A stretch of DNA of 64,000 nucleotides from the NCBI RefSeq assembly GCF_964213995.1, contig NC_135814.1, forward strand, positions 59,830,001 through 59,894,000, in the 5' to 3' direction. Of this stretch, positions 31,101 to 64,000 are shown in pieces. Each line of letters opens with the position of its first letter. Positions within the stretch are counted from its first letter, which is position 1. The translations under genes were made by a program, and so were the position numbers. Below the pieces are notes generated by a model, which made no database searches, was not told the DNA's origin, and worked only from the letters and a program-made list of their open reading frames with translations. Source of the DNA: Mustelus asterias. Taxonomy: Eukaryota.

Positions 31101-33358
31101 CAGGCCTTGCAGTATCCTGTAAGTTTCAATAAGATCCTCCCTCATCCTTCTAAACTCCAATGAGTACAGACTCAGAGTCCTCAACCATTCCTCGTACAAC
31201 AAGCTCTTCATTCCAGAGATCATTCTTGTGAACCTCCTCTGCACTCTTTCCAAGGCCAGCACATCCTTCCTTAGATACGGAGCCCAAAACTGCTCAGAAT
31301 ACTCCAAATGGGGTCTGACCAGAGCCTTATACAGCCTCAGAAGTATATCCCTGTTCTCGTATTCTCGCCCTCTCGACATGAATGCTAACATTGCATTTGC
31401 TTTCCTAACTGCTGACTGAACCTGCACATTAACCTTAAGAGAATCTTGAACAAGGACTCCCAAGTCCCTTTGTGTTTCTGACTTCCTAAGCATTTCCCCA
31501 TTCAGAAAACAGTCTATGCCTCCATTCCTCCTTCCAAAGTGCATAACCTCACACTTTTCCATATTGTACTCAATCTGCCACTTCTTTGCCCACTTTCCTA
31601 ACCTGTTCAAGTCCTTCTGCAGCCTCCCACCCCCGCTTCCTCAATATTACCTGTCCCTCTACATATCTTTGTACCATCTGCAAACTTAGCAACAGTGCCT
31701 TCAGTTCCTTCTTCCCAATCGTTAGTGTATATTGTGAAAAGTTATGGTCCCAGCACTGACCCGAGGCACATCACTAGTCACCGGCTGCCATCCTGAAAAA
31801 GACCCCTTTATCCCCACTCTCTGTCTTCCACCAGTTAGCTAATCCTCTATCCATGCCAGGATCTTGCCCTTAACACCATGGGCACTTAACTTATTTAACA
31901 GTCTTCTATGCGGCACCTTGTCAAAGGCCTTCTGGAAATCTAAATAAATCACGTCCACTGGTTCTCCTTTATCTAACTTCCTTGTTACCTCCTCAAAGAA
32001 CTCTAACAGATTTGTCAGACATGACCTCCCCATGACAAAGCCGTGCTGACTCAGTCCTATTTTATCATGCACTTCCAAGTACTCTGCAATCTCATTTTTA
32101 ATAATGGACTCTAAAATCTTGCCAATGACCTAAGTCAGGCTAACTGACCTATAATTTCCCGTCTGCTGCCTCCCTCCCTTCTTAAACAGCGGTGTTACAT
32201 TAGCTACTTTCCAGTCCTCTCGGACCCTCCCTGCCTCCAGCGATTCCTGAAAAATCACTACCAATGCCTCCACAATTTCCTCAGCTATCTCTTTTATAAT
32301 CCTGTGGTGTAGTCCATCCGGTCTAGGTGATTTATCCACCTTCAGACCTTTCAGTTTCCCCAGAACCTTCTCCTTAGTGATTGCCACTGCACTCACCTGT
32401 GCCCCCAATTCTCCTGGAGCTCTGGCATCGCACTGGTGTCTTCCACCATGAAGACTGATGCAAAGTAACTATTCAGTTCCTCTGCCATTTCTTTGTTATC
32501 ATTCCAATTCTGGGAGCTCCAGTCCAGTAGTAACACCAACTGGGATTGGAGCAACTCCAATAAATAAAGCTCAATGCAAGTTCGAGGAAGAGGACCTTAT
32601 CCTTCAATCGGGCATTTACAGCCTTCTGAACTCAACATTTGAGTTCAACAAATTCAGACTGTAATCTCTTCCCCCATGTTCTTTGCAGGTTTTGTTCTTG
32701 CAGTCCTGTTTCTTCCTTATTTTTGCTTTTGGACTGCCTCTGTTCATCATTCTGCCATTCACACCTCACCTAGGCACATATTTTGTCTCTTTCATCACCA
32801 CTCCCAAATGGCATAATCTTTTTGTCAAATAATCTCACCTGCTCCCCATTCATCACAGATCTTCCTTATTGCATTCCCATCCCACCCCACCCTTACATGT
32901 GCCGTTCCAACTTTTCCCAGTAATGATGGAAGGTCATCAGCCTGAAACTTTAACTCCTCTGTTTCTCTCACCACAGATGGACCTCAGTGTCTCATTTCAG
33001 ATTTCCAGCATCCGCAGTATTTTGCTTTCGAACATGAAATACCAACTTGGCTTTAGGGAAAGGTGCAGAATGGAACTGGCAGAAAATGTACAAAGTAAAA
33101 TCCAAATTTGTCATTTCCCAAGTAAAGTAGAAGAAAACACTGACAGGCGACTAACCTGCAGTAAACTTTGGAGCCGTCTTTTGCCAGGAAGCCATCGTAA
33201 TGAGCATTAAGCGCATCTCCACGTTTGCTCTTCACAGGACAGTTTTCTGGCTTGTACAAAACTTCTATCTTTACTTCTTCCGCGTCTTCCGCGCAAATGC
33301 CGTCGAAGAGAACAGTGCAAACCAGCGAGTAAAACAGCAAAGCGCTATGTCGGTACAT
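22030..33358 (-). CDS. FKBP7: FK506-binding protein 7 (ER peptidyl-prolyl isomerase with EF-hands), join complement 33358-33156, 27856-27705, 25455-25328, 22191-22030; 645 nt, 214 aa
   Basis: Signal peptide [27 protein letters not shown] domain ([21 protein letters not shown]...[21 protein letters not shown]...[13 protein letters not shown]), EF-hand loops [12 protein letters not shown] and [13 protein letters not shown]-terminal HDEL. Confidence 0.96.
22735..24540. mobile_element. Cluster of CR1/L2-clade LINE fragments
   Basis: ORFs with RT-like [15 protein letters not shown] (+, ~23500) and [13 protein letters not shown] 3' motifs in both orientations. Confidence 0.7.
25328..25455 (-). CDS. 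FKBP7: FKBP7 exon 3 (128 nt)
   Basis: tattcag| [42 protein letters not shown] |gtatgt. Confidence 0.95.
27705..27856 (-). CDS. FKBP7: FKBP7 exon 2 (152 nt)
   Basis: cctacag| [50 protein letters not shown] |gtaat. Confidence 0.95.
28939..29233 (-). mobile_element. tRNA-derived SINE (HE1-related subfamily)
   Basis: Minus strand ggcggcatggtggcacagtgattagcactgctgcctca...; similar copies at 46295-46572 (-) and 61215-61490 (+). Confidence 0.8.
30764..32476 (-). mobile_element. CR1 LINE (RT region and 3' end)
   Basis: ORFs [71 protein letters not shown]; tcttatggtct tail. Confidence 0.95.
33156..33358 (-). CDS. FKBP7: FKBP7 exon 1 (203 nt coding)
   Basis: ATG at 33358-33356; ends KVYC-AG|gttag. 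Confidence 0.94.
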
Positions 33359-34030
33359 GCTGGAGATGAGGTTGGTTAACGAACACCGCCGTAAACCGTC
33401 AGCTGCAGCTCGAGCTCTGCTGCCACGTCGCAACGGGCCACGTAACCCAGACAACGGACTTCGGGGCGGGCGACCCTCACTGTCATTGGCTCCTCGAGCT
33501 GTCAATCAGCGACCCCACCGCCCAATCCCATTCGTGCGCGAGACAAGCCCGCCCCAGCTCGCGGGCGGACGGGCAGTTCTGCGGCTGCGCGGCCACTGCC
33601 TTTTCTGATCGTTGTTGCTGGTGGCCTCCCTCCCCCCCTTGCGTTGTTAGGGTGGGAGCTTCCGGTGCCGAAGGTGGGGGGTCGAAGGTCGGCAGGCAGG
33701 CAGGGAGGGTGGGTAGCCTGGTTGTCGGGATGGTACTGAGTGAGGGATCCACTGTGTCTGAGGCCGGGGCCACGGGCGAACCGAGGCCCGCGCAGCAATG
33801 AAAGCGAGAGCGCGGGCCGGACTGGATTGGGCCACTTGGGGGGGTTTTGCTGCGGCCTGGATGTGAAGGCGAGCTGATGCTGAAGTGACGCCGGATCGGA
33901 AGATGTGAAAATGGAAGGGATCCTGTACAAGTGGACCAATTACCTGACGGGTGAGTGGGGAGCAGGCCGGGGCTGGGTGGGTGTTGAAGGTGTCCATCTC
34001 CCGGGCTGTAAGTGAGGGGGATCCGTGCGG
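33280..34030. promoter_or_regulatory. CpG-island bidirectional promoter of FKBP7 and PLEKHA3
   Basis: GC/CpG-rich against an AT-rich background; the two ATGs are 552 bp apart head-to-head; CCAAT boxes at 33485, 33522 and 33826; GC box at 33463-33470. Confidence 0.88.
33911..33950 (+). CDS. PLEKHA3: PLEKHA3 exon 1 (40 nt coding)
   Basis: aaaATGG context, [14 protein letters not shown]|gtgagt. Confidence 0.95.
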
Positions 34031-37000: not shown

Positions 37001-40000
37001 GCAAGGGTTAGAAATGCACCATCTGAAGATGAAAGAAGGTCAACTTGGTTCCGAAGAAGAGTCATACTGGACTCGATGTTAACTTTGTTTCTCTCTGCAT
37101 GGATGCTGCCAGACTTGTTGAGTTTTTTCAGAACTTCCTGTTTTTCTTTTAGATCTCTGCATTCACAGTAATTTGCTTTTATGTCCCAGAGCTTACGAGG
37201 AACCAGGCCATTTTGGACCTAGTAATGTGGAATGAAACATTCATTAAAAACCTCTTGGTAAAGGTCCCTTTTGGCAAGCATGATCATAACATGACTGAAT
37301 TTCGCATTCAGTTTGAATGAGAAATGTGGGCTGCTGCACCTCGGATATGTTGGCCAACTGACATTCTGGACAAAAATACTCAAATTTCATACAACAATCT
37401 CCTTTATTGTACCTTGCCAGGTTACCACAAAAGTATCAAGACTCCACTATAGAGTATCAAGAGCTCTATTACACAAAGTATCAAAACTCTCAGCTTGGAC
37501 CTAAATACAACCCATTAAGAGGCGAGGTGATCAGTCTCATCTCTCGGTGGGTTCTGATGTCCTTTCTGAGTCCCAGACCCAGGGTGGTGCTTCTTTCCAT
37601 TATTGTTCCTGTAGGTTGTCGCTCTTGATGTTTCTTTGTCTTTCCTTTTTATCTGGTACTGATCATGCTGTTAGTCACATACTGACAGGCACTGCTGAAT
37701 CACTGTCTTTAAGTCATGACTGCTCAGGGAGTTGTGTTTATCTCAGGAAGTCTTGTTTCTGAGCACTTCCACTCACAGGGTCTGTGTTCAATCACTGTCC
37801 ACCAGAGGCATTGCACAGCATTGTCTCACATGAGGTGATTGCCCAATCAACAATTCCTGTTCCTTACTGCAGATCACAATTCTTATCCCGATGCAGAGTT
37901 AGCCTTTTGAACCAATAGACTTTGCTGGTGTCTTCATGGATACCCGCCAGGGTACAGGGCCATAACTAATATTTTAAACTTAAATAAAGGCAATTACAAG
38001 GGTATGAAGACAGAATTGGCTAAATTGGACTGGGTAAATAGGTTAAAGGCAAGACAATCGAGAAACTGTGGCAGACATTTAAGCAGATCTATTCATTTGA
38101 GGAAGAAAGACTCCAACAGAAGGATACACCATCCATAGCTAACCAAGGAAGTTAAGTGTGGTATTGAATTGAAAGGAAAGGCTCACAATGCTGTGAAGAT
38201 TGATGGAAAGAAGTAGGCAGAGAAACCAGCAAAGGATTCCTAAAACAAAATGGAAGGAGAAATTGGAGTGCAAGAGAAAACTAGCATGAAAAGGAAAAAG
38301 ACAGTATAAGCTTCTACAAGTACAACTACTGGATCCTGTATTCAGGATGCTCGGGACTCGACATGTTATGGATTTGGGGATTTTATCGAGTTTGTTTTAC
38401 CATGCATTTACAAAACATGATGAAAGTATGAGAAATAAACATTAAAAGGCTTTTATTTACTTTTAGTGTTTAATTAATGTGTTTTATTTTCGTAAATTGC
38501 ATCTCAACCAAAGAAAAGTTAATTGCCGTGCGGGCAGAAGTTGAAGGTTCAGATTCCGTTGTACTACTTTTAAACATGTCCTGTAGTTTAAGTTGGTTTA
38601 AACAGGTGGGCCTTTCTTTCAAAAACAGCTCTTCTTTTCTGTAGACCCACATAATAAGTGGCTCCATAACAAAGCCCTTTTACTCAATCCCATGAATCAA
38701 TTCATACATTCATAAGATATAGGAGCAGAATTAGTCCATTCGGCCCATCGAGTCTGCTCTGCCATTCGATCATGGCTGATATGCTCCTCATCCCCATTTT
38801 CCTGCCTTTTCCCCATAACCTTCCAATCCATTACTAATTAAAAATCTGTCTAACTCATCAAATTTACTCACTGTCCCAGCAACCACTGCAGTTTGGGGTA
38901 GCGAATTCCACAGATTCACAAACCTTTGGGAGAAGTAGTTTCTCTGTTTTAAATTTGCTACCCCTTATCCTAAGACTATGACCTCTCGTCCTAGAATGAC
39001 CCACCAGTGGAAGCAACTGCTCCACATCTACTTTATCCATACCTTTTATCATCTTGAATACCTCAATTTGATCTCCCCTCATTCTTCTAAATTTCAGAGT
39101 ACAATTCCCCTGTAATGCTTATACATTTGTCAGTAGACACTTTATTTCTGTTTATCCAACACATTACTTTCATCATTATCACTCTTGTTCTGTTTATTTT
39201 TATTTATGACCGTATCACATATTTCACTGTCAGTGAGGAAGGAGGTGAACTAGAGCACCATTGTCAATGTTCAGACATTCCTCAACCACTTCTTCTTCTA
39301 AGCTCAGCACATGATAAATCCTTTGCATATCTTCAATTTCTTTTCTCCTCAGACATGCAAAAACCACTAAAATCAGGTGCAGTTTCACAGTCACCATTTT
39401 AAAAACCACAAGTTGTGCCATCCATTTATCAAAACACTTTGGGATAGATTGGTCCTTCACAACGTTCCTGAGTGCATTTTTTGTGTTGAATTATTTCTGG
39501 AATTCCTTAAATCCCAAGCCTCTTGCGCACTGTGAGCTCTTTGCACATTAATTCAGCCTTGGACCCAAATGCCCGCAGAATTCCTTGATCCATGGACTGG
39601 ACAAATAAGTTCCAAAAACATTGTCCCGGACGATGAGTTCTGCAGTGGGATGTGCAGCACATTATCACAGAGTAACATACTCTGAGTTCTGGCTTCAGGG
39701 ACAAAATGATTCTCGTACCAATCAAGGAAAATTGGTCTAGTCATCCATATACACTTATTGGCCTTATAAGAAACAGAAAAATTCTTGATCCCCTTGAAAG
39801 ATCTAGGATTCTGACTTTTACCAATAACAAGCAACTTACACCTGTGGGTGACTGCTGCATTTGAACATAGTAAGAAGTTTCACAACACCAGGTTAAAGTC
39901 CAATAGGTTTATTTGGTAGCACAAGCTTTCGGAGCGCTGCTCCTGTGGCTTGTGCTATCAAATAAACCTGTTGGACTTTAACCTGGTGTTGTGAGACTTC

Positions 40001-43000
40001 TTACTGTGCTTACCCCAGTCCAAAGCTGGCATCTCCACATCATGGCATTTGAACATCCCAGTATAGTAAGCCATTTGTTCCTTAGAATCTTTGAATCTCG
40101 TTGGTGCTGTCTCACCCGCAGTTACATCAGTTTTCTTGGGAACATGCCTCTAATATAGAGGCCTCATCAGTATTATACACTTACTCTGCTGTTAGACCTT
40201 CTGATATTATTGTGGAAAATGCATCTAATTATGCCTCTGCAGCTTGATTGGCACCTAAAGCTTTTTGCATGGATACTTTCAATGGACAAACACCATAGTG
40301 TTTTTAAACATTTGTTATACCACCTTAGCAAGTATTTGCATGGTGTTGTTAAACGTGGCTCTTCATGGAACACTTTCACTTTGCCACATAATAACTTGGC
40401 CCACGGAAATGATCAAATGGATATTTCTAGCTTCGACGCTGCCTGATTCACTTAGTTGCACTTAGTCTGAATGGACAGTCTTGACTGATGGAGTGTTCTC
40501 CTATTATCCATTAATTAGGATAAATCACTGGCAGCATAAGCTTTAAGAAACTTCTTTTGTCTCTTTAACTCCTAAATGGTCGATGTACCAGCACCATACT
40601 CTTCACTTTTCACCGAAGCATTGTTCTTTACCCAAATAGTAACTCCATTTTCTGCTGATTATTTCTGCTTGCCTTTTTGACATGAAACCAGCAATAATAA
40701 AGGCTAGAACTACAGAGAAACACTGTGTACAGGTAATTGATGTGGCAACCAATAGTACCATTAAATAAAGTGAGAGCTTGACAAATTAGTCTGCACATCA
40801 TATTTAAATTGCTAAACATGGCGACACTGTCAAATGCAGCCGATTTTTCGGGATGCCAGATAAGGGGTCCAGTCCCTGTATATAAAAAGGGAAAGTGTAG
40901 TTAAAGTGAGCATTGGTCCCTTTGATGATAGGACAGTGGAATTAATAATGGGAAATGAGGAAATGGCAGAGGGTCTATTCATCTTCATAGTCAAAGACAC
41001 AAAGCGTTTCCCAAGAATAATAGAAGATCAAGAGGCAAGGGGAGGGCGGGACATAAAGCAATCCATATACTAGAGAAAAAATAATGAGAATTCTAATAGG
41101 ACTTGGGGTTGACAAGTGCTCTGGACCTGATGGCCTGCATCCTAGCGCCTTAATGGAATTGGTTGCCGGATACATTGGTTGTAATTTTTGAAAATCCTCT
41201 AGATTCTGGAAAATCCCAGCAGATTAGAAAACTGCAAATGTAATACCTTTGTTAAAGAAATGAGGAGACAGAGAGCAGGAAACTATAGGCAAGTTAGCCT
41301 AATGTCTGTCATTTGGGAAAATGGTAGAATCCATTATTAAAGAGGTAGTAGTGGGACATTTGGAAAATCATAATACAATCAGGCAGATTCAGCATGGTTT
41401 TGTGAAAGAGAAATTGTGTTTGACAAATTTACTAGAGTTCTCTGAGATGTAACAAGCAAGGTGGAGCAAGTGGAACCAGGGGATATTGTGTATTTGGATT
41501 TTCGAAAGACATTCAATTAGGTGCCGCATTGAAAGTTAGCATGGATGGAGGAGGGCTGGCTAACAAGCAGGGAACAGAATATAGGGATAAATGATTCATT
41601 TTCAGGATGGTAAACTAATGAGTGGAGTGACACAGGGAGGATCAGTGTTGGGGCCTCAGCTATTTACGATCTACATTAATGACTTGGATGAAGGGACTCA
41701 TTGTACTGTAGCCAAATTCGCTAACAATATGAAGATAGATAGGAGAATACAAAGAAGCTGCAAAGGAATATGGATAGGTTAAATGAGTGGGCAATAATTT
41801 GGCAGGCGGAGTATAATGTGAGAAATTGCTGTACACTTGGGTGGAAAGAATAGAAAAGCAAAATATTTGAATGGGAAGAAGCTGCAGAATGCTGCAGGAC
41901 AGAGGGATCTATGTGTCCTTGTATGTGAAATGCCGACATGCTGGCCCAGGAAGAGATTAGGAAGGCAAATGGAATGTTGACCTTTCTTGCAAAGAGGTTG
42001 GAGTATAACAGTAGGAAAGTCTTTCTACAACTACAAAGGCATTGATTGAGACCATACCTGAAGTGCTGTACAGTTTTGGTCACCTTACTTGCATTAGAAG
42101 CAGTTCAGGGAAAGTTCACTTGGTCGATTTCTGTGGTAAGGGGTTGGTCTCAGGAGAAAAGGTTGAGCTAGTTGGGTCTGTACTGATTGGAGTTTATACG
42201 AATGAGAGGTGATCTTATTGAAACATAAAATTCTGAGGGAGTTTGAAGGTAAATGCTGAGAGAATGTTTCCCCCTGGGGGAAACTTTAATTTAGGGAGTT
42301 TTGAAATAAGGGCTCTACCATTTAAGATAGAGATGAGGATTGTTTCTCTCAGAGGGCCATTAATGTTTGTAATTCTCTTCCCCAGCAAGGCTGAGTTAGC
42401 CCGATTTTTGATCTACAAAGGAATCCAGTGTTATGGAAGGGCAGGCATGCAAATGGAGTTAAGGCCACAGTCAGATCAGCTGTGAATTTATTGAATACAG
42501 TAAGAGTTTTAACAACACCAGGTTAAAGTCCAACAGATTTATTTGGTAGCAAACACCATTAGCTTTCGGAGCGCTGCTCCTTCGTCAGATGGAGTGGAAA
42601 TATGATTTAGCATCCAGGCCAATTTTTTGAATGGCAGAGCAGGCTCAAGGGACTGAATGGCCTACTGCTCCAAATATGTTTTTATATGAACTTCTCCGAA
42701 CAGATTAACTGTCCCATTACTCTGTTTCTGTGACCTTATTGTGTACAAATTGACAGCCTATATTTTTTGGTTTTTTTCCAAAGACAATTGCTGGAATTTT
42801 ACCGCCCCACCTGCCACAAAAATCCGAACAGGCGAGGGCGGAAAATGGGAAGGTCTGTTGACCTTGGGCAGGATTTTCCAGTCTCGGGTCAAGTGAGGCT
42901 ATAAAATCCCATCCAATTTGTTACATTACAGAAGTAGTTCAGTGGCTGTGAAGCACTTTAGGACCCACTGAAGTTGTGAAAGTTGTTATATAAATGGAAA

Positions 43001-46000: not shown

Positions 46001-49000
46001 AATACAGGAGTCTGTCAGACAAGACCAGCCGAGTTTCTCACCCTCTGCTGAGGTATGATGTATCAGAAGATATACTGATAGATGTTAGATTTGGTAAACA
46101 TGTAATTAAATTTCCTACTCTCGTGGATGTACAGTGGACTGTTGGGCCATAATCAGAAGCTCCTGAGTCAAACTGCCTTATTGTCAGTCTATGACTTTCT
46201 TTTGTTGACAATTTTTTTTTTTGCTATATGTAAATCATTCTACCAGGTCATCGAAATGCATAAAAGCTACGATATAAATGGATCACAAGTCCAAAGAAGT
46301 TTATTTAGTAGTGTCACAAGTAGGCTTGCAATAACACTGCAATGAAGTTGCTGTGAAAATCCCCTAGTTGCCACATTCCAGCACCTGTTCAGGTATACGG
46401 AGAGAGAATTTAGCATGCCAATATACCTAACCAGCACATCTTTCCATCTTTCGAGGAAACCCACACAGACACGGGGCGAACGTGCAAACTCTGCACAGAC
46501 AGGGCCAGGAATTGAACCTGGATCCCTGGCGCTGTGAGGCAGTAGCACTAACTACTGTGCCACCATGCCGCCCATTCATGTTGGTGCTGATCCTTCATCC
46601 AAGGGAAAAAGTTCTTTTTGCATTTACGGAACTTGTACAATGTCCCTTCATCCACCTGTCAAATATAATCTTGAATGTTGACAGTTTGTGCCATAACCAC
46701 CTTCTCTGGAAGTGAGTTCTATAACCTCACTATCTCTATGAATATTATACAAAAGAGTAGATGCTCTCTTCTGTTTTTCTGCTTACTTCATTATCAGGTT
46801 AAAGTGTTTATCTATAAGACCATAAGACCATAAGACATAGGAGCGGAAGTAAGGCCATTCGGCCCATCGAGTCCACTCCACCATTCAATCATGGTTGATT
46901 TCAACTCCATTTACCCGCTCTCTCCCCATAGCCCTTAATTCCTCGAGAAATCAAGAATTTATCAATTTCTGTCTTGAAGACGCTCAACGTCTCGGCCTCC
47001 ACAGCCCTCTGTGGCAATGAATTCCACAGACCCACCACTCTCTGGCTGAAGAAATTTCTCCTCATCTCTGTTCTAAAGTGACTCCCTTTTATTCTAAGGC
47101 TGTGCCCCCGCGTCCTAGTCTCCCCTGTTAATGGAAACAACTTCCCTACGTCCATCCTATCTAAGCCGTTCATTATCTTGTAAGTTTCTATCAGATCTCC
47201 CCTCAACCTCCTAAACTCCAATGAATATAATCCCACGATCCTCAGACGTTCATCGTATGTCAGGCCTACCATTCCTGGGATCATCCGTGTGAATCTCCGC
47301 TGGACCCGCTCCAGTGCCAGTATGTCCTTCCTGAGGTGTGGGGCCCAAAATTGCTCACAGTACTCCAAATGGGGCCTAACCAGTGCTTTATAAAGCCTCA
47401 GAAGTACATCCCTGCTTTTGTATTCCAAGCCTCTTGAGATAAATGACAACATTACATTTGCTTTCTGCTACAACTTTGTGAATTAATGAACAGTTACCCA
47501 GCTAAATATAACTCTCTAAAATAAACAAAGGCTGAATTCTTATTCCAATAATACAAGTTGGGTAAAGTGCTGCTCCATATTTCATAACTTAAAAACATTT
47601 TGCGTGGAATCTATAAATTGGTTCAAGCTTTTAGGTTCCTATGTAGCTTAGTATTTGGATAACTACAGATACACAACAGCGATCAATTGTGCAGTCTACA
47701 TTTAAAGTATGTTGTGAAATCTCTACATTTAAATAACATTTTTGTTTGTTTCATAGAACATGAATGAAGCCTCATCCTTGCTCAGTGCCACTTGCAATAC
47801 CTTCATTACAACTCTTGATGAGTGTATGAAAATAGCCAATGCCAAGTTTAAACCAGAAATGTTCCAATTCTCTGTCACTGATCCACTTGTCTCTCCTGTA
47901 TCACCATCACCTGTTCAGATGGTTCGGGTATGATACTATAAAAATATATTTACTAATGCTTTTGCAATTTGTCTACTGCTATTTCTCGTAAAACTTTGTC
48001 TTTTTCATGACTTGCACCTGATATAAATTGAGTTGTGATACAAGCTTAATTTAGATGATTTTAAAGTTGGTAACTTTCATTTTGATATTGCAGATGAAAC
48101 GATCCATTAGTCATCCTGGTACCATTCTTTATGATAGGTAAGTTAAAGGAATTATATTACTGGTTATAGATTCAAATTATATTTGGGTACTGGTAATTGT
48201 GATCGTTAATGATGAGACCTTTTTAACTATAGTATTTTCTATCCCAGCATGTCGGTATTGTCACTGATGCAATATAAATATGTTGTAGAATGTGCTGGCA
48301 ATGATAGAGTTCTTAATTCCTCAGTATAACTGTGCCCCTACATTGTTAGCACAAAGCTGGTCACAATTGATTTGAATGCAAGCAAGGACAGAACAGGATA
48401 TCAACGCTAGTGATGTTTAACATCTTAATTTTTAGCTTCTAATTATAAAAGATTCTATTTTAATGTAGTTATGGGTTTGGACTTTGTATTATTCTGGCTG
48501 CCAGTCCGTCACCATTCAGCAGTTTGACTTATCTATTTTATACTTGGATGATTACTTTCCTGAACATGTTTTGTGTCGAAATTAAATGTTGTCTTCAGCA
48601 GGAAACTGAACACTAATCACCAAAAGGAAGCAATTATTGTGACACCACATGGCGAAGAACACAGGAGAATATGGGCGTATTCAGGTGCTGAATCATGCGG
48701 CGATAGTGTTCTTGAACATGCAGAAAGTAAGCAAGCAAATCGATCCCTTCTTTATTAGAAATAAATCATAGAAACCCTACAGTGCAGAAGGAGGCCATTC
48801 GGCCCATCGAGTCTGCACCGACCACAATCCCACCCAGGCCCTACCCCCATATATTTACCCACTAATCCCTCTAACCTACACATCTTAGGATTCTAAGGGG
48901 CAATTTTTAACCTGGCCAATCAACCTAACCCGCACATCTTTGGACTGTGGGAGGAAACCGGAGCACCCGGAGGAAACCCACGCAGACACGAGGAGAAGTG

Positions 49001-52000
49001 CAAACTCCACACAGACAGTGACCCGAGCCTGGAATCGAACCCGGGACCCTGGAGCTGTGAAGCAACAGTGCTAACCACTGCGCCACCGTGCCGCCCCATA
49101 GATAGATAGATACCCTACAGTGCAGAAAGAGGCCATTTGGCCCATCGAGTCTGCACTGACCACAATCCCACCCAGGCCCTACCCCCATGTCCCTACATAT
49201 TTACCCACTAATCCCTCTAACCTACACATCTCAGGACACTAAGGGGCAATTTTAGCATGGCCAATCAACCCAACCCACATGGCAGAGCACATGGGCGGCA
49301 CGGTAGCACAGTGGTTAGCACTGCTGCTTCACAGCTCCATGGACCTGGGTTCGATTCCTGGCTTGGGTCACTGTCTGTGTGGAGTTTGCACATTCTCCTC
49401 ATGTCTGCGTGGGTTTCCTCCGGGTGCTCCAGTTTCCTCCCACAGTCCAAAGATGTGCGGGTTAGGTTGATTGGCCATGCTAAAACTGCCCCTTAGTGTC
49501 CTGAGATGCGTAGGTTAGAGGGATTAGTGGGTAAATATGTAGGGATAAGGGGGTAGGGCCTGGGTGGGATTGTGGTCGGTGCAGACTTGATGGGCCAAAT
49601 GGCCTCTTTCTGTACTGTAGGGTTTCTGTGATTTCTATCTTTGAAATTTCTTTGAGGTTTCTTTGAGAAACCTTAGGTGTAGATCTTTGTATAAATTGTC
49701 AGTAAAGCTTGTCCTTTTGATACTTCCAATCAAGTATCAATTACTTGTTTAGAAATGTCTGTGGCCATGGTGCATTATCAGTTTCCTGCAGCTTTGACAT
49801 AGTTGAGCATGCCATCTTTCTCCAACACCATTCCTCCATTATCTCGCTCTAGGTGAAACTGCCTTGGTTTGGTTTCACTCTCCAATTGTAGGTAGAGCGT
49901 ATAAAAAAACTTCTTTACCCTCCACTGCACCATCCCATGTCTATCCACGTGCTGACACTTGTTGACACTTGCATGCTAATGTCATTCAGCTCCTCCACTG
50001 CACTGCCTCTGTGCTGTTAACACAGTAAGAGTTTTAACAACACCAGGTTAAAGTCCAACAGGTTTATTTGGTAGCAAATACCATTAGCTTTCGGAGCGCT
50101 GCACCTTCGTCAGATGGAGTGGGAATGTGCTCTCAAACAGGGCACAGACACAAAATCAAGTTACAGAATACTGATTAGAATGCGAATCTCTACAAGCAAC
50201 CAGATCTTAAAGATACAGACAATGTGGGTGGAGGGAGCATTAAGCACAGGTTAAAGAGATGTGTATTGTCTCCAGACAGGATAGCCTGCAAGTCCAGGAG
50301 GCAAGCTGTGGGGGTTACTGATAATGTGACATAAATCCAACATCCCGGTTTAGGCCGTCCTCATGTGTGCGGAACTTGGCTATCAGTTTCTGCTCAGCGA
50401 CTCTGCGCTGTCGTGTGTCATGAAGGCCGCCTTGGCGAATGCTTACCTGAAGATCAGAGACTGAATGCCCATGGCTGTCTGGAGACAATACACATCTCTT
50501 TAACCTGTGCTTAATGCTCCCTCCACCCACATTGTCTGTATCTTTAAGATCTGGTTGGCTGTAGGGATTCGCATTCTAATCAGTATTCTGTAACTTGATT
50601 TTGTGTCTGTGCCCTGTTTGAGTGTTCTCTTCCTGTTGGGGAGCACTTCAGCGGTCACGGGCATTCGGCCTCTGATATTCGGGTAAGCGTTCTCCAAGGC
50701 GGCCTTCGCGACACACGACAGCGCAGAGTCGCGGAGCAGAAACTGATAGCCAGGTTCCGCACACACAAGGACGGCCTCAACCGGGATATTGGGTTTATGT
50801 CACACTATTTCACATAAATATTTCTGCTTTTTTCCTCCTGAGTCTTTATCATGCGATCCTAGAATCAGAATTTATGTCACACTATTTGTAACTCCCACAG
50901 TTGCGTGGACCTGCAGAGTTTCACTGGCTGTCTTGTCTGGAGACAATACACATCTTTTTAGCCTGTCTTGATGCTCTCCCCACTCCCATTGTTTTGTTTC
51001 TTAAAGACTGGATTAGTTGTAAGTATTCGCATTCCAACCATTATTCATGTAAATTGAGTCTGTGTCTTATAAGTTCTGTTTGTGAACAGAATTCCCACTC
51101 ACCTGAAGAAGGGGCTCAGAGCCTCGAAAGCTTGTGTGGCTTTTGCTACCAAATAAACCTGTTGGACTTTAACCTGGTGTTGTTAAACTTCTTACTGAGA
51201 GCACATTCCCACTCCATCTGACGAAGGTGCAGCGCTCCGAAAGCTAATGGTATTTGCTACCAAATAAACCTGTTGGACTTTAACCTGGTGTTGTTAAAAC
51301 TCTTACTGTGTTCACCCCAGTCCAACGCCGGCATCTCCACATCTGTGCTGTTAGACAGATTTCTAAATATTGAGGACATCAAGGCCTATGGGGATAGTGT
51401 TTGGAAAATGGCTTTGAGGTAGAAGTTCAGCCATGATCTAGCTGAATGACAGAACAGACTTGAGAGGCCAAATGGCTGATTCCTCCTATTTTCTATGTAA
51501 GGACCCATGTTCTCACATACATATTACTAGGTTATATCGTTGCATGGTTCAGTATCATGACCGAAGTTTATATTCACTTTAATTGAATAGAAGCATTCTA
51601 ACTATTTTGGTTCAGTATTTAGCAGGGTGCTAGATCAGGTAGACATTTGCTGTGCACTGGGCTGGCCTTTAAAAATGGTGCCTGGATCATCGCTTTGCTG
51701 AGTTGATGATGGGGTAAGCGAATCAGAGGATGCCCGCCAGCAGTACGATGTAGAACCCCCACCTGCCTGCCTTTTTCTCAAAGTCCCACACTATTGCAGA
51801 AAAAGCCACCATTGGCACCTCAATGGCCCTTTTCCTGCCTGATGTTAGAGAAAATCTCGCCCAATGTTTTCATTTATAGGGAAGAGCATAACTAGAGCCT
51901 AACAATGTAAGATAGCCATCAAGAATTTCAACAGGAAATTCAAAAGGAATGTCTTTACCCAAACAGTGGTGAGAATGTGCTACTACATAGGGAGTGGTTA

Positions 52001-53140
52001 AAATGAATAGTATACATGCATTCAAGGGGAAGCTAGACAAGCATAAGAAGAAGAAGGGAATAGAGGGTTACAAGATAGATTTGGATGAGGATAGATGGGA
52101 GGGGGCTCAAGTGGAATGTAAATGCCAACATGTACTTGTGCCAAATGACCTATTTCTGTGCTGTATATCCTACGTAAGTCTATGTAAACCATGAACAAAA
52201 TCAGATGAATGAAGCAAATTTAATTTCACAATTGTATAACTTCTTAGAATATACTATTGAACTGTTTTTTCTGAAATGGAAATGATATGGTGATTTTGAC
52301 AGATGTTTAATTTATTTTAAGGATGGGACAGAGTAGAACACAGTGGACTGTTTCCAGTGATTGTGATGATTAGATTGAGGAGATATAGGTATAAAAATTA
52401 AATGTAAGGAATTTAGTATAAAATGCAACACTTTTTGAAGATGATGAAACTGTAGAACACAAGGAGAAACCAACTCAACGTTCCTGAATAGTTTTGGCAA
52501 ATGATTGAAGGTACAGAAATTTGGAAGCAGGGAGGGCACATTGGATCGTGTCCGTTGACTATCAACACTGATTAGTTGGGCTGAGCGAGCTGTTTATGTA
52601 AACGATTGCTTGACATATGACCCTGTTAATAATTCGCTGCTACTTCACAACATTCAATGAACATAAAATGTAGGCAGATATCTAATAGTACAGCTGCTGT
52701 TGGATGTACTTCAAAGCATGCTGCAGTGGGTTTAAATTGCCCCAATGATTAAAACTCAGCCACTGGTCATGTAGGCAGGACTTTCACTGAAACATTGAAG
52801 AAACTGACTTGGCCTATCTGTGCTTTGCAATAAGTGCACCTTCTTGGCTATGTGCAAGGCAAAACTAAGCCAAAGTGGAGGATTTTAATATCTGTTTACT
52901 CTCTCTCTTTTGAAGTTAGATGCTTGGAAGTAATATTTGTGGAGGTAAAATGTACACTTTGAACCAAGATGATAAACTTTTATCTTTCAACCATTTACAG
53001 AGACTGCTCAGATTTCTTGCAGTTCCTCACCGACTGCAAATGGTGAATTCCCTCCAATGGCCATTCCAGAAGAAAATATTGCAAACTCGAGGAATAAATT
53101 ATCTGAGACAGAGAGTCCTTTTGTTGCACTTTCAAGTTGA
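33911..53140 (+). CDS. PLEKHA3: Pleckstrin homology domain-containing A3 (FAPP1), join 33911-33950, 44013-44129, 44501-44656, 45916-46052, 47757-47921, 48094-48137, 48599-48726, 53001-53140; 927 nt, 308 aa
   Basis: PH domain [36 protein letters not shown]...[13 protein letters not shown], then [19 protein letters not shown]; GT-AG junctions in frame; head-to-head with FKBP7. Confidence 0.95.
34066..37160. mobile_element. Old Penelope-like element fragments in inverted arrangement (GIY-YIG remnant)
   Basis: FIIGETK.S..DCF in ORF 34544..35242 (-) and the mirror-image ctctacattgggaagac...gtagaacacctt at ~35890 (+); pLTR-like ends at 34090-34190 and 36710-36815; a SINE is inserted at ~36157-36417. 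Confidence 0.7.
38323..40878 (-). mobile_element. Tigger/pogo DNA transposon remnant with decayed transposase
   Basis: ORF 39553..39834 [14 protein letters not shown]...[24 protein letters not shown] (DDE_1-like); TA dinucleotides at 38321-22 and 40879-80; degenerate TIRs. Confidence 0.8.
39869..40044. mobile_element. Short Penelope-like insertion (inverted ends)
   Basis: aacaccaggttaaagtccaa... followed by its inverse; 12-bp target duplication gcatttgaacat at 39857-39868 and 40045-40056. Confidence 0.85.
42498..42625 (-). mobile_element. Short Penelope-like end carrying a hammerhead ribozyme
   Basis: Same terminal sequence as 50023-50120; ttgaat repeated on both flanks. Confidence 0.8.
42556..42592 (-). 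ncRNA. Minimal type-I hammerhead ribozyme
   Basis: CCAT-CTGACGA-A-GGAGC(AGC)GCTCC-GAAA-GC-TA-ATGG. Confidence 0.75.
44013..44129 (+). CDS. PLEKHA3: PLEKHA3 exon 2 (117 nt)
   Basis: cctag| [38 protein letters not shown] |gtaaag. Confidence 0.95.
44501..44656 (+). CDS. PLEKHA3: PLEKHA3 exon 3 (156 nt)
   Basis: attag| [51 protein letters not shown] |gtaac. Confidence 0.95.
45030..45620 (+). mobile_element. LTR-like repeat (solo LTR candidate)
   Basis: Internal AATAAA, ends ...accctaaca; homologous to 20265-20420. Confidence 0.5.
45916..46052 (+). CDS. PLEKHA3: PLEKHA3 exon 4 (137 nt)
   Basis: tctag| [31 protein letters not shown]...SPSAE |gtatga. Confidence 0.95.
46817..47466 (-). mobile_element. 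Young 5'-truncated CR1 LINE
   Basis: Uninterrupted 183-aa ORF2 C-terminus ([19 protein letters not shown]...[14 protein letters not shown]), tandem cttatggt tail. Confidence 0.95.
47757..47921 (+). CDS. PLEKHA3: PLEKHA3 exon 5 (165 nt; alternative donor at 47927)
   Basis: tcatag| [36 protein letters not shown]...[10 protein letters not shown] |gttcgg or VR|gtatga. Confidence 0.92.
48094..48137 (+). CDS. PLEKHA3: PLEKHA3 exon 6 (44 nt)
   Basis: ttgcag| [16 protein letters not shown] |gtaagt. Confidence 0.9.
48599..48726 (+). CDS. PLEKHA3: PLEKHA3 exon 7 (128 nt, NAGNAG acceptor)
   Basis: cttcag|cag ...[23 protein letters not shown] |gtaagc; divergent, but phase-compatible with its neighbours. 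Confidence 0.8.
48765..49637. mobile_element. Cluster of three HE1-type SINEs (two minus, one plus)
   Basis: Full copy 48765-49097 (-), partial copy 49107-49280 (-), full copy 49292-49637 (+). Confidence 0.9.
50081..50117 (-). ncRNA. Minimal type-I hammerhead ribozyme
   Basis: CCAT-CTGACGA-AGGTGCAGCGCTCC-GAAA-GCTA-ATGG. Confidence 0.7.
51100..51136 (+). ncRNA. Minimal type-I hammerhead ribozyme (variant 2)
   Basis: CAC-CTGAAGA-A-GGGGCTCAGAGCCTC-GAAA-GCTT-GTG. Confidence 0.7.
51214..51250 (+). ncRNA. Minimal type-I hammerhead ribozyme (variant 1)
   Basis: CCAT-CTGACGA-AGGTGCAGCGCTCC-GAAA-GCTA-ATGG. Confidence 0.7.
53001..53140 (+). CDS. PLEKHA3: PLEKHA3 last coding exon (140 nt)
   Basis: tttacag| [25 protein letters not shown]...PFVALSS TGA; resembles the mammalian NG...IPEE...SS C-terminus. 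Confidence 0.85.
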
Positions 53141-59730: not shown

Positions 59731-62452
59731 ACAGGTTTGACAGCACTGGGTTTTCAGTTATGCTGTCCTTTCTCTGGTAGTCGACTCCTGTTCCAATTTC
59801 TAACTGCACATTCCCTGACTTTGGAGTTGCCGCTGCTGATCCTTGGTTTGATCACCACTTTCGGATTCAGAATGCAGCAAGCCTTTATGTGAATAATTCA
59901 TGTGTTGTTTCTGGCTGTGCTGTACTCGAATACCTTAAGTGCCTAGAAAAGTTTCAGGATGCATATAAGATGCTCTAGGGCACATGTTGTAGTTGAATAA
60001 GCCTTATTATATCTGTTCACCTCATGCTGCATCATGCATGAATGAAGGATTCAGCCCTGATCACCAGTTCACTAATCTAATACTGAGCTTTGAGTCATGA
60101 GGGCTCCATAGGTGAATTATCACAGAGAGTTAGTGTTCCCCAAGGATGTGCAATGGGTTATCAACATTGCATAGTAGCTTCACACCAATAAAAGGGAAAT
60201 TCTGCATATGAAAAAGGATTTGAAGTGACGACTGCATCAAAGGACAAGGGCAACAAACACATGGGAGCACCATCACCTGCATCTTGCTGTTCAAGTCACA
60301 CACCATTCTGCTCCTTCATTGCTGGACCAAAATCATGGAACTGCCTATCTAATAGCACTAAAGGGGTGCTTCCACAACATGGACTACAGCGGATAAAAAA
60401 GGCAGCTCACTACCACCTGCTCAAGCAATCAGGGATGTGTAATAAATGCTGGTCTCAGTCACGAACCAACAGAACTGGATAACTGTTCTGGGAAAAAAAC
60501 GACATGAACTGAGAGGATTGGTGACTTTGATCCTGACAGGTTAATCTGACATAGATCACTTTATGTTATTGAGAAGGATCCAGATGCACAGTGGTTTAAA
60601 GCAATGGTAACATGGCCTGACACAGTTAATTCCCCTAAAGGAAGTGAACTGGTTAAGTTGTATTATGACCAGAGATGAGTACGATAAATGAGGGAAACTT
60701 GCAGCTTGTGGAATAGGCTTGCTGGATCAGTTTACCTGTTCTCGTCCACAATTGTTTTTTATTCCTATGGTAATTGCTGATTTTGAGATGCTGGTTGTGG
60801 GAACAAGATTCCATGCTATCAGAGTACCTCAATATTCTATACAGTCTGTGGGATCAATGCATGTTTGGTTAAGATCTGAATGTGAGTTAAAACTGTTTTC
60901 TGCTAAACGTGGGATTTGCAAGCTCTGTCCTATACAATCAAGTACAAAGTATGAGCATCCCTACAAAGAAGGATGGCAAAATGCTATAGTAACCACTCAA
61001 ACATGTCTGATGATTTTGAATATGTAACCAAAGGCCTGATAACAATAACCATGTTCATTCTTGTCTCTGAAATGTGTAGTGCAGAACTCATTGCTGCAAC
61101 TTCTCAGAAATAGGAATGCCCTTCACAATTAATAAATGTATAAATTAAAATTAGAGACACTCATGATTACTGAAGCAACTGTTTTACTTGCATGTAATTT
61201 ACATTCAAAGCAGTGGTGGCACAGTGGTTAGCACTGCAGCCTCATTTTGATTCCTGGCTTGGGTCACTGTCTGTGCGGAGTCTGCACGTTCTCCCCATGT
61301 CTGCGTGGGTTTCCTCGAGGTGCTCCAGTTTCCTCCCACAGTCCGAAAGATGTGCTGGTTAGGTGCATTGGCCATGTTAAGTTCTCCCTCAGTGTACCCG
61401 AACAGGCACTGGAGTGTGGCGACTAGGAGATTTTCACAGTAACTTCATTGCAGTGTTAATACAAGCTTACTGTGACACAAATAAATAAACTTTAAACAAT
61501 AAGGTTATTTTGTAGCAACTGAAGCAGGATTGGAACAGGTGTGGGGCATTTAGCCCCTTAAGTTTCTTTCCCCCATTAGATAAGATCATAGCTGTTGTGT
61601 ACCACAATTCCATTTTTCGATCTTAGTTCTGTATTCTTTCACTGGCAACAAATTAGGGAGAGAATACAGAGAAGGGCTGTGACAGAACATAGGCAGATTA
61701 TTAATAAACTTGTAGAATGAGTATATAATTGGTAAATGTACCTCAATATAGATAAGTGGGAGATGGGAAGATCACGTACTCATTGAAAAAAGTCTAAATG
61801 GGATAGAGGAGCAGAGAGGCTTGGGATACAGGTACAAAGGTCATTAATTAGTGATGCAGATTTAAAACATAACATACCCTGTGCTTTTTAAAAAATTATG
61901 TTAAACTTGTGTAGAACCTTGGTTGGACCACACATGGCGCGGGGTAAAAAGTTCTGGTTGCCACATAATTAAGAGGATATATGGGCACCGGGAAGGGTGA
62001 AAGAAAGCTTTATCAAGATGATACTAGAATGGAGGTGTTTTACTTATTAGGAAAGATTGAAGAGGCTGAATGTTGAAAAGATAAAACTTAGGGGTAATTC
62101 TGTAAGAGGTCGAAAGTGTTTAATAGGGTAGATGGAGAAGATGTTTCCAGCAAGGCGGGGGGAGGGGGGGGGGCAAGACTAGGGTCAATCAGACCAAGCT
62201 CAAGAATGTCCTACCAAGATACCACCAACATGTCTCCTGTTCCACCAGAGGCCTAAACATCCTAGACCACTACTACACAAATATCAAACATGCCTACCGC
62301 TCTATCACCCGCCCACACTTTGGCAAATCAGTCCGCAAGGCTGTGCTCCTGCTCTCAGCTTACAAGCAAAAACTGAAACGGGAGAATCCGTCAAAGAAAG
62401 CCATGCAATGTTGATCTAAGGAATCTAATAATCTCCTGTGGGACTGCTTAGA

Positions 62453-62800
62453 AGTTTAACAACACCAGGTTAAAGTCCAACAGGTTTATTTGGTAGCAAA
62501 AGCCACACAAGCTTTCGGAGCTCCAAGCCCCTTCTTCAGGTAAACTTCTTACTGTGTTTACCCCAGTCCAACGCCGGCATCTCCACATCATGACTACCAT
62601 CGGCACCGCAAACTGCCGGCTCCAAGTGGAGAGGATCTCCAAGAAGATCGCGCATATCAACACAGACACCTGAAGAAGGGGCTTGGAGCTCTGAAAGCTT
62701 GTGTGGCTTTTGCTACCAAATAAACCTGTTGGACTTTAACCTGGTGTTGTTAAACTTCTTACTGTGTTTACTCCAGTCCAACGCCGCCATCTCCACATCA
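62453..62800. mobile_element. Short Penelope-like insertion with two hammerheads (62506-62541 minus, 62666-62704 plus)
   Basis: Inverted pLTR ends; target duplication gg(a/g)ctgcttaga at 62441-62452 and 62801-62812. Confidence 0.85.
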
Positions 62801-63033
62801 GGGCTGCTTAGAGTCAGCAGACTGGTCAGTATTTAAAAACACTGTGACTGGCATGAATGAGGGCGCCGCTACAGTGTCTAACTTCATTAGTAAGTGTGTA
62901 GAAAACTATGTGCCAAAGAAGCAAATCCGCATGTTTCCCAACCGGAAACCATGGATGAGCAGGGATATCCACTGCTTGTTGAAGTCCAGGTCTGAGGCAT
63001 TCAAGTCAGGTGACCCTGACATATATAAGAAAG

Positions 63034-63408
63034 TAAGAAGTTTAACAACACCAGGTTAAAGTCCAACAGGTTTATTTGGTAGCAAAAGCCCAGATTGCCT
63101 AGATCCATTACAGTTCGCCTACCACCACAACAGGTCCACAGCAGACACCATCTCCCTGGCCCTGCACTCAACCCTGGAACACCTAGATAACAAAGACACC
63201 TGTCAGACTCCTATTTATCGACTATAGCTCAGCCTTCAACACCATTATGTCTATGAAACTCATCTCCAAACTCCGTGGCTTGGGGCTTGGCTTCTCCCTC
63301 TGCAACTGGATCCTGGCTTTTGCTACCAAATAAACCTGTTGGACTTTAACCTGGTGTTGTTAAACTTCTTACTGTGTTTACCCCAGTCCAACGCCGGCAT
63401 CTCCACAT
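63034..63408. mobile_element. Short Penelope-like insertion enclosing a captured Rex1 segment
   Basis: Inverted ends at 63034-63090 and 63315-63408; duplication catatataagaaag at 63020-63033 and 63409-63422. Confidence 0.85.
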
Positions 63409-64000
63409 CATATATAAGAAAGCCAGGTATGATCTAAGGAGATCCATCAAAGAAGCCAAAAGACAATACCAGACCAAGCTAGCATCCCAGGCTAGCCACA
63501 CGGACCCCTGCTGACAATGGCAAGGTCTGCAGGACATAACAGGCTACAAGATGAAGGCATGTAAAATCGCCAGCACCAACGCACCCTTCCCTCATGAGGT
63601 GATGAGGGAATGTATTCTATGTCCGTTTTGAGCAAGAGGTCAGCGAGAGCATGCCCTCCACCCCGGAAGCCTCAGATGAACCTGTATCTGAGGTCACCAT
63701 TGCAGATGTCAGAGCAGTCTTCACAAAGGTCAATCCTTCGAGAAGACCGGCCCGCATGGGGTACTCAGATGAGCATTCAGCTAGTGGGGGTTTTTGCAGA
63801 CATCTTCAACCTCCCTTTACAACTATCTGAGGTCCCTATCTGCTTCAAGGAGACGACCAACATCCAGGTACCAAAGAAAAGCCAGGCAGCGTGTCTTAAT
63901 GACTATTGCTCTGACATCCATCATTATGAAGTGCTTTGAAAGGTTAGTCATGGCACACTCAATTCTGGCCTCCCAGATTGCCTAGATCCATTACAGTTCG

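Follow-up and report, generated by a model that had tools for sequence, protein, structure and literature searches.

Two minimal hammerhead motifs lie in tandem within an intron of a shark gene, and the question that this locus raises is whether such a pair might cut the host pre-mRNA, as a first-pass annotation had proposed, or whether it records the activity of the mobile element that brought it there. According to the data reported below, the hammerheads of a young and abundant Penelope-like element (PLE) probably process the element's own RNA, the tandem pair being a nested insertion that likely does not cut the transcript of the host gene, PLEKHA3, to a relevant degree. The locus itself is ordinary; it is the family that matters, since it makes in vivo cutting by PLE hammerheads open to direct testing. 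In the following, "window" indicates the whole 64,000-nt stretch of Mustelus asterias DNA that was analysed, and published systems are cited from portions of the respective papers.

Hammerhead motifs and host gene

A pattern search of the window confirmed all six of the previously proposed copies of the motif, with the CUGANGA/GAAA/UH core in type-I order (Table 1). Each copy consists of stem I, CUGANGA, an extra A, stem II, GAAA, GCU, H and stem I again. The combination of AGCU-H, extra A and GAAA is kept in 6/6, in agreement with the description of helix III as a palindromic AGCU and of an additional A after A9; the seven looser CUGANGA..GAAA matches found elsewhere in the window all lack AGCU. 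The stems needed some correction: GGAGC/GCUCC, given as one of the two stem II variants, is right for the 42556 copy only, the copies at 50081 and 51214 being GGUGC/GCUCC with a U-U mismatch, and the CAC/GUG form of stem I does not extend to the 62506 copy, which reads UAC instead of CAC. Since both A-type copies in 50020-51353 share the same U-U, the mismatch was already in their template.

With the Rfam hammerhead covariance models, no match at E<=5 was obtained within the 64-kb window. Genome-wide, the pattern CTGANGA-N-N12-17-GAAAGCT matched 155,085 times versus 90 for the reversed pattern, i.e. far above chance, with about 42 cores per Mb. Judged on their sequence, the motifs are minimal type-I hammerheads of PLE pLTRs, a kind already known.

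The host gene was identified by protein comparison, the matching named proteins being shark PLEKHA3; all eight coding exons were mapped to the + strand, and the gene is intact. The + strand tandem pair does lie in sense in intron 7, between exons 7 and 8, as had been stated, and five further cores or PLE ends occur in or near PLEKHA3.

Table 1. Coordinates (window positions) of the hammerheads, PLE insertions and host exons.
Feature	Positions	Strand	Remarks
CUGANGA starts	42588(-), 50113(-), 51103(+), 51218(+), 62539(-), 62670(+)		window pattern search
Single short end, A type, carrying hammerhead 42556-42592	42494..42604	-	PLEKHA3 intron 1, antisense
PLEKHA3 exon 7	48600..48725	+	protein mapping; end approximate
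Left target-site duplication, 12 bp, of host subfamily-A insertion	50008..50019	+	empty site is a perfect CTG-N16-CAG
Subfamily-A inverted arm	50020..50473	-	GIY-YIG C-terminus, 3' UTR, hammerhead, short end
Minimal hammerhead, A type, antisense to PLEKHA3	50081..50117	-	U-U in stem II
Subfamily-A forward arm, 5' part	50475..50622	+	98% identical to 50132-50279 reversed
Nested single-armed subfamily-B insertion (youngest)	50623..51195	+	GIY-YIG C-terminus, 3' UTR, hammerhead, short end
Minimal hammerhead, B type, sense to PLEKHA3	51100..51136	+	predicted cut after 51133
AATAAA hexamer in conserved pLTR block	51152..51157 (second at 51263)	+	in sense within intron; candidate signal only
Subfamily-A forward arm, 3' part	51196..51341	+	hammerhead and tail end
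Minimal hammerhead, A type, sense to PLEKHA3	51214..51250	+	U-U in stem II; predicted cut after 51246
Right target-site duplication	51342..51353	+	paired with 50008..50019
PLEKHA3 exon 8, coding part	53000..53140	+	protein mapping; start approximate
Two-armed B-type insertion	62450..62800		hammerheads 62506-62542(-), 62667-62703(+); ~9 kb past PLEKHA3 stop codon
Two-armed B-type insertion, no hammerhead	63032..63410		both arms start 3-4 nt 3' of predicted cut

Some further features of the window were recorded. The centre of the 62.5-kb insertion (62541-62666) holds a pLTR end and the initial 76 nt of the PLE ORF, joined directly to the hammerhead, as in a template jump out of the 5' region of the element itself. 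In the other two-armed PLE insertion, the middle is filled by ~220 nt of LINE-like sequence (63091-63313, resembling 8413-8525). A fourth fold-back PLE insertion, of C type and absent from the first-pass annotation, lies at 39862-40046; one of its arms begins at the predicted cut and the other has half a hammerhead. Outside the PLE copies, an FKBP-type exon, presumably FKBP7-like, is located on the - strand (33053-33952) in a head-to-head arrangement with exon 1 of PLEKHA3 (33911); a long inverted repeat at 28462-28617, weak on several miRNA models and under their gathering scores, is probably a MITE-like or fold-back repeat; and a tRNA-like match on the - strand (46497-46569, 34.5 bits) is likely the head of a tRNA-derived SINE.

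Origin of the tandem pair by nested insertion

The element previously delimited at 50020-51353 has to be shortened at its end, which takes in the right target-site duplication. On sequence grounds, the tandem pair is a nested insertion, i.e. a B end that landed within an A copy, and not an evolved dimer: the B arm sits between the split halves of the A forward arm, so that the tandem consists of the B hammerhead followed by the host's A hammerhead. The two subfamilies are ~81% alike. The stretch 50620-51197 is identical at 577/578 positions to an intact element found at another locus (L041); since the B piece thus belongs to a dispersed young family, the tandem pair is recent.

We then checked how often this arrangement recurs. 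The exact nested junction was found 9 times genome-wide versus 19,286 empty host sites, the number expected at random being ~0.3 (a hand estimate, based on ~100,000 short ends). An antisense tail arm at 75-1,115 nt is present in seven of the eight other loci, which indicates that these are independent landings; this arm is ambiguous at one locus (L061), and the window's nested copy is without it. The pieces inserted at the nine loci differ in length and subfamily, and both hammerheads are found at the junction in only two of the nine. Because the inserted pieces vary in this way, the idea of the tandem pair as a spreading composite or retrozyme unit was rejected.

The recurrence at one position can be explained by the target preference of the family, whose motif lies there: the A-type pLTR carries a CTG-N16-CAC directly 5' of its hammerhead. 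The target-site duplication is 12-13 bp long in 82 of the 123 paired insertions. After removal of the 17 at loci selected for tandem or junction, CTG-N16-CAG was centred on the duplication in 33 of the remaining 106 insertions, and the N17 spacing in 9, with 0-4 for most other spacings; where the duplication measures 12 bp (36 sites), conservation of the inner TG and CA positions is 83-91%. A tendency of PLEs to settle within or next to earlier copies has been described (portions of PMC6765202). As a separate observation, many insertions were seen at the same few positions within other LINE families (L070, L088, L090, L091, L125, L145-L147), and the LINE positions hit repeatedly carry CTG-N16-CAG-like sites, according to their recurring flanks.

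The Penelope-like family and its intact element

The attribution to a young PLE family is supported both by the identity with the intact element of L041 and by the many identical copies: a 461-nt piece of the insertion has 100% identity at at least 41 places (among 632 candidates, 40 scored), and a 42-nt block 3' of the motif has 114,886 matches genome-wide. The L041 locus holds a complete element, composed of a pLTR, an 893-aa frame starting from ATG, a second pLTR and an inverted arm, with one hammerhead in each pLTR (at 3578 and 6675, 3,097 nt apart) around the ORF. The 893-aa protein matches RVT_1 in Pfam (E=3e-10); Pfam gave no match to a GIY-YIG domain in this protein, in which the motifs DKG, YIDD, VVYLIRC..YIGET and R..EH were recognised by eye or regular expression. 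A C-X4-C-X2-C linker is located between RT and EN at residue 754.

The resulting architecture is that of a single ORF, with RT followed by a C-terminal GIY-YIG, together with pLTRs, an inverted arm, a one-sided tail and a target-site duplication; the insertions, with 3' ends facing outwards on both sides and a 12-13 bp duplication, lack poly(A). This layout suggests a Neptune/Nematis type, and of the two we prefer Neptune for a shark element, on account of the vertebrate distribution of that clade.

Moreover, an internal duplication (50809-50870) follows the ORF stop directly in the youngest subfamily, B, and is lacking in the others; a further subfamily (L054:3286) differs in stem II, has a bulge in stem I and leaves no more than 7 nt between the cut and the shared block; and related pLTR sequence is also present in three further organisms among the contigs searched.

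Variation and constraint in the motif

From 212 sampled ends, 169 copies with a readable motif were retrieved, 138 of which passed all core and stem checks. The extra A is present in 168/169. Position H17 is U in 96, A in 64 and C in 9 copies, and never G. Stem I closes with C-G in 92 copies, with U-A in 70 and otherwise in 7, so that the covarying stems claimed for the motif can be upheld for the closing pair, even though the stem I/stem II covariation reflects few evolutionary events. Stem II position 3 is A-U, G-U or G-C across the recurring variants, with pairing kept, and the same variants keep the G10.1-C11.1-type G-C closing pair of stem II, replaced by G-U at 62666. None of the recurring variants has lost a catalytic position, and the changes at N7 and H17 and in loops and stems are of permitted kinds.

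It had been suggested that a functional motif should be recognisable by excess conservation or by covariation across genomic copies. Covariation was seen in the stems; excess core conservation among the copies was not found, the mismatches per site being 0.012 in the core versus 0.006 in the adjacent pLTR block, a comparison biased by the use of that block as search anchor. A core no better conserved than the block would be expected of dead copies.

Folding of the tandem pair and effects on the host transcript

A double hammerhead is formed by exchange of halves, each copy contributing its 5' half to pair with the 3' half of its partner (portions of PMC4209133). In the mixed B/A pair of PLEKHA3, the stem I closing pair of the outer core, at the 51246 cut, would be a C-A mismatch, while stem I of the inner core could form U-G, A-U and C-G, and this inner core could form and cut at 51133. 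Constrained folding placed the mixed-pair double hammerhead 21.5 kcal/mol above the ensemble, with pairing probabilities of 0.001 for stem II of the A copy, 0.015 for the AGCU cross helix and 0.000 for both the inner and the outer stem I. The same energy model disfavours the homodimers too (-18.1 for the double hammerhead versus -37.6 for the unconstrained dimer, and -20.5 versus -33.9), penalising any hammerhead core; thus, the result for the mixed pair is relative evidence only.

That the sense pair folds as a double hammerhead, cleaves the PLEKHA3 pre-mRNA in intron 7 and affects the host transcript appears very unlikely to us. The sense orientation, the 115-nt core-to-core spacing of the copies at 51100 and 51214 (as first described), the complementarity of the AGCU/AGCU helix, the three pairs possible in the inner stem I and the weak in vitro cleavage of dimer and trimer constructs of the Schistosoma minimal hammerhead (portions of PMC4209133) would all suit such an activity; they are set against the nested origin of the pair, the outer C-A, the U-U of the A copy and the low pairing probabilities. 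Furthermore, the activity of minimal hammerheads is low even as dimers (same portions of PMC4209133), that of the Anolis hammerhead required the element's protein (portions of PMC11167929), and PLEKHA3 is intact in a genome with so high a density of cores and with five more cores or ends in its surroundings. The working dimer of the first-pass annotation is not supported, given its nested origin, the failure of the cross-paired stem I at 51246 and the strongly disfavoured fold, and the tandem pair likely cuts PLEKHA3 pre-mRNA to no meaningful extent.

An effect on the host, if any, might come instead from the sense AATAAA hexamers or from a pLTR promoter, through premature polyadenylation or an intronic start. 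The two hexamers (Table 1), the words resembling TATA and Inr on the 5' side of the B hammerhead and the clustering of arm boundaries near them (see below) are compatible with this explanation; we regard it as improbable, as the insertions lack poly(A) and exon 8 is present in the annotated shark proteins that match the window.

Insertion ends at the predicted cut

If the ribozymes process the element's own RNA, its insertions may preserve a trace. Genome-wide, the predicted cut is the exact starting point of 1,148 B ends (counted with three non-matching bases directly before it), versus 363 that begin one base upstream (+1); 42,469 B ends continue past the site, as about 95% of them do. The peak of the B ends coincides with the scissile bond and not with the edge of stem I. 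Among the first 30 cut-site junctions, 23 are very short fold-backs attached to the other arm. The partner arm is longer, crossing the cut, in 3 of 25 cut-site ends versus 11 of 15 control arms (p=1.4e-4), the controls being unselected arms ending 6-32 nt further upstream, with two control insertions counted twice.

Hand tallies of 100 rows each were carried out among 2,239 matches for A-type ends, 2,556 for the cut site and 2,916 for a control interval 11-20 nt 3' of the cut; two rows of the first tally and 12 of the second were dropped as internal deletions or other subfamilies. The control interval has a single-position peak of 22/100 rows versus 13/100 at the cut site, which implies that position peaks also arise from microhomology and that the cut-site footprint stays suggestive. 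At A-type ends, the excess is broad, from -1 to +2, with no sharp peak. For 204 unselected ends, the interval from -5 to +9 was only slightly raised, at 0.66 versus 0.44% per nt, with 0/29 in purely random stretches.

Boundaries cluster more strongly at 30-46 nt on the 5' side of the cut (38 of the 166 arms at risk). In B-type pLTRs, this cluster coincides with a word that we take to be Inr-like, ~30 nt after one that we take to be TATA-like, and it likely corresponds to the transcription start.

As a whole, the sister copies across the genome would record ribozyme cutting of the element's own RNA, for which the ends are suggestive, and we lean towards the view, drawn from genomic copies, that the hammerhead cleaves a minority of element RNAs in vivo.

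A possible cycle and its alternative

The following scenario can be depicted for the element. The TATA/Inr-like site, located 5' of the upstream hammerhead by a few bases, would serve as transcription start. The two hammerheads that end a transcript, or those of separate transcripts, might then swap strands via the AGCU palindrome; dimer formation would probably be assisted by protein, and a minority of the RNAs would be cut. Most templates would be uncut or religated, because most arms run through the site and a few percent stop there. A dimeric endonuclease would cut both DNA strands ~12 nt apart, and both DNA ends might prime reverse transcription; this two-ended priming and the protein assistance are proposed by analogy with PMC11167929 (in the portions compared). 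A circle may also form, as proposed in the corresponding portions of PMC4209133.

More tentatively, and somewhat short of an even call, the ends may represent a fossil record of the full cycle, with a dimeric GIY-YIG, the CTG-N16-CAG target, a 12-nt stagger, both ends priming on one RNA and two stops corresponding to the RNA 5' ends (cap site and hammerhead cut). If true, this reading would amount to evidence for cleavage by a minimal PLE hammerhead in vivo; self-targeting beside the hammerhead, in turn, would repeatedly place two ribozymes in tandem, which would offer retrozymes a way to arise.

The function of PLE hammerheads has been called unclear (portions of PMC8557442), and they might instead be structural or vestigial (protein-binding, promoter-proximal or simply riding along), without in vivo cleavage, the peaks deriving from RT stalls and microhomology. 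This explanation would account for the B ends that run through the site and for a control peak equal in height to the cut peak; Naiad PLEs thrive without canonical hammerheads (portions of PMC8557442), and Anolis RNA-seq gave no reads at the cut in the portions of PMC11167929 considered. We hold it to be doubtful, since the catalytic positions are all kept in the recurring variants while the others vary as allowed, and since the B peak falls at the scissile bond, mostly in fold-back junctions, and the other arm rarely crosses the site. Against processing of the element's own RNA, which we nevertheless prefer, hammerhead mutants of the Anolis Poseidon element were without effect on insertion in vitro (portions of PMC11167929). 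With a young family, an intact ORF, ~155,000 cores, a defined target and more than 1,000 ends at the predicted scissile bond, the question is directly testable, and the element is a candidate for the biochemistry of a Neptune-type integrase with sequence preference.

Comparison with known systems

A literature search, with Repbase and subscription papers outside its scope, found no earlier report of a shark PLE hammerhead, a CTG-N16-CAG target consensus or a genomic cleavage footprint; sharks are not among the taxa named in the main text portions of PMC4209133 that were compared, and the supplements of that paper and of a 2026 preprint (in which one chondrichthyan was sampled) may already list shark motifs. 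A domesticated intronic hammerhead of the amniote kind, which would be conserved across species at a single locus, was considered and rejected, as the B piece matches a dispersed young family at 577/578 positions and the pair is accordingly recent.

The closest ribozymes are the minimal hammerheads of PLE pLTRs described by Cervera and De la Pena (2014, PMC4209133), who recorded them in fish PLEs of the Xena, Poseidon and Neptune types. On a sequence basis, the shark motifs have every defining feature given in the portions compared: type-I topology with no real helix III, palindromic 15.2-16.2, an extra nucleotide between 9 and 10.1, G10.1-C11.1 and a short helix I. In both cases there are several consensus families with covariation, the copies are mostly single and on truncated PLEs, and pairs occur on opposite strands. 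Helix II is 5-6 bp long in the shark versus 7-8 in the Schistosoma motif. The 155,085 shark cores are far above the 4,000 of coelacanth and the 9,000 of Xenopus in the same paper and comparable to the 126,247 canonical motifs of axolotl (portions of PMC7229834), with descriptors that differ among the studies.

As for the element, the C-terminal EN+ PLEs Neptune and Nematis (Craig et al. 2021, portions of PMC8557442) share the single ORF with RT and then GIY-YIG, the CX2-5CxxC linker, the pLTRs, the inverted 5'-truncated arm and the one-sided 30-40 bp tail; Neptune elements are described as biased to microsatellites, whereas the target of the shark family is a spaced palindrome, CTG-N16-CAG, with a 12-13 bp duplication. 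The Anolis Poseidon PAc (Frangieh et al. 2024, portions of PMC11167929) is alike in the two RT start sites bounding the tail, the cleavage and extension of both DNA strands, the predicted dimer, the cut in its own pLTR and the protein-assisted hammerhead. It differs in preferring an AT-rich ATT site and in an ORF that begins inside the hammerhead, the shark ATG being located ~100 nt 3' of the cut site; for PAc, a trace of cleavage in vivo was not found, according to the portions compared.

The nested arrangement recalls Pen2a in Pen3 of Adineta vaga (portions of PMC3846280), a PLE within a PLE, in opposite orientation, with target-site duplication and tail; there, too, the Penelope pLTR has a TATA and an Inr-like TCACT, likewise present in the shark pLTR. 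Unlike that case, the shark nested site recurs at one position, which the target motif accounts for. Finally, the non-LTR retrozymes (portions of PMC7229834 and bioRxiv 10.64898/2026.07.22.740005) also have tandem type-I hammerheads derived from PLE pLTRs; according to these sources, they are head-to-tail repeats of one unit, whereas the shark pair joins two units of two subfamilies and does not spread as a unit.
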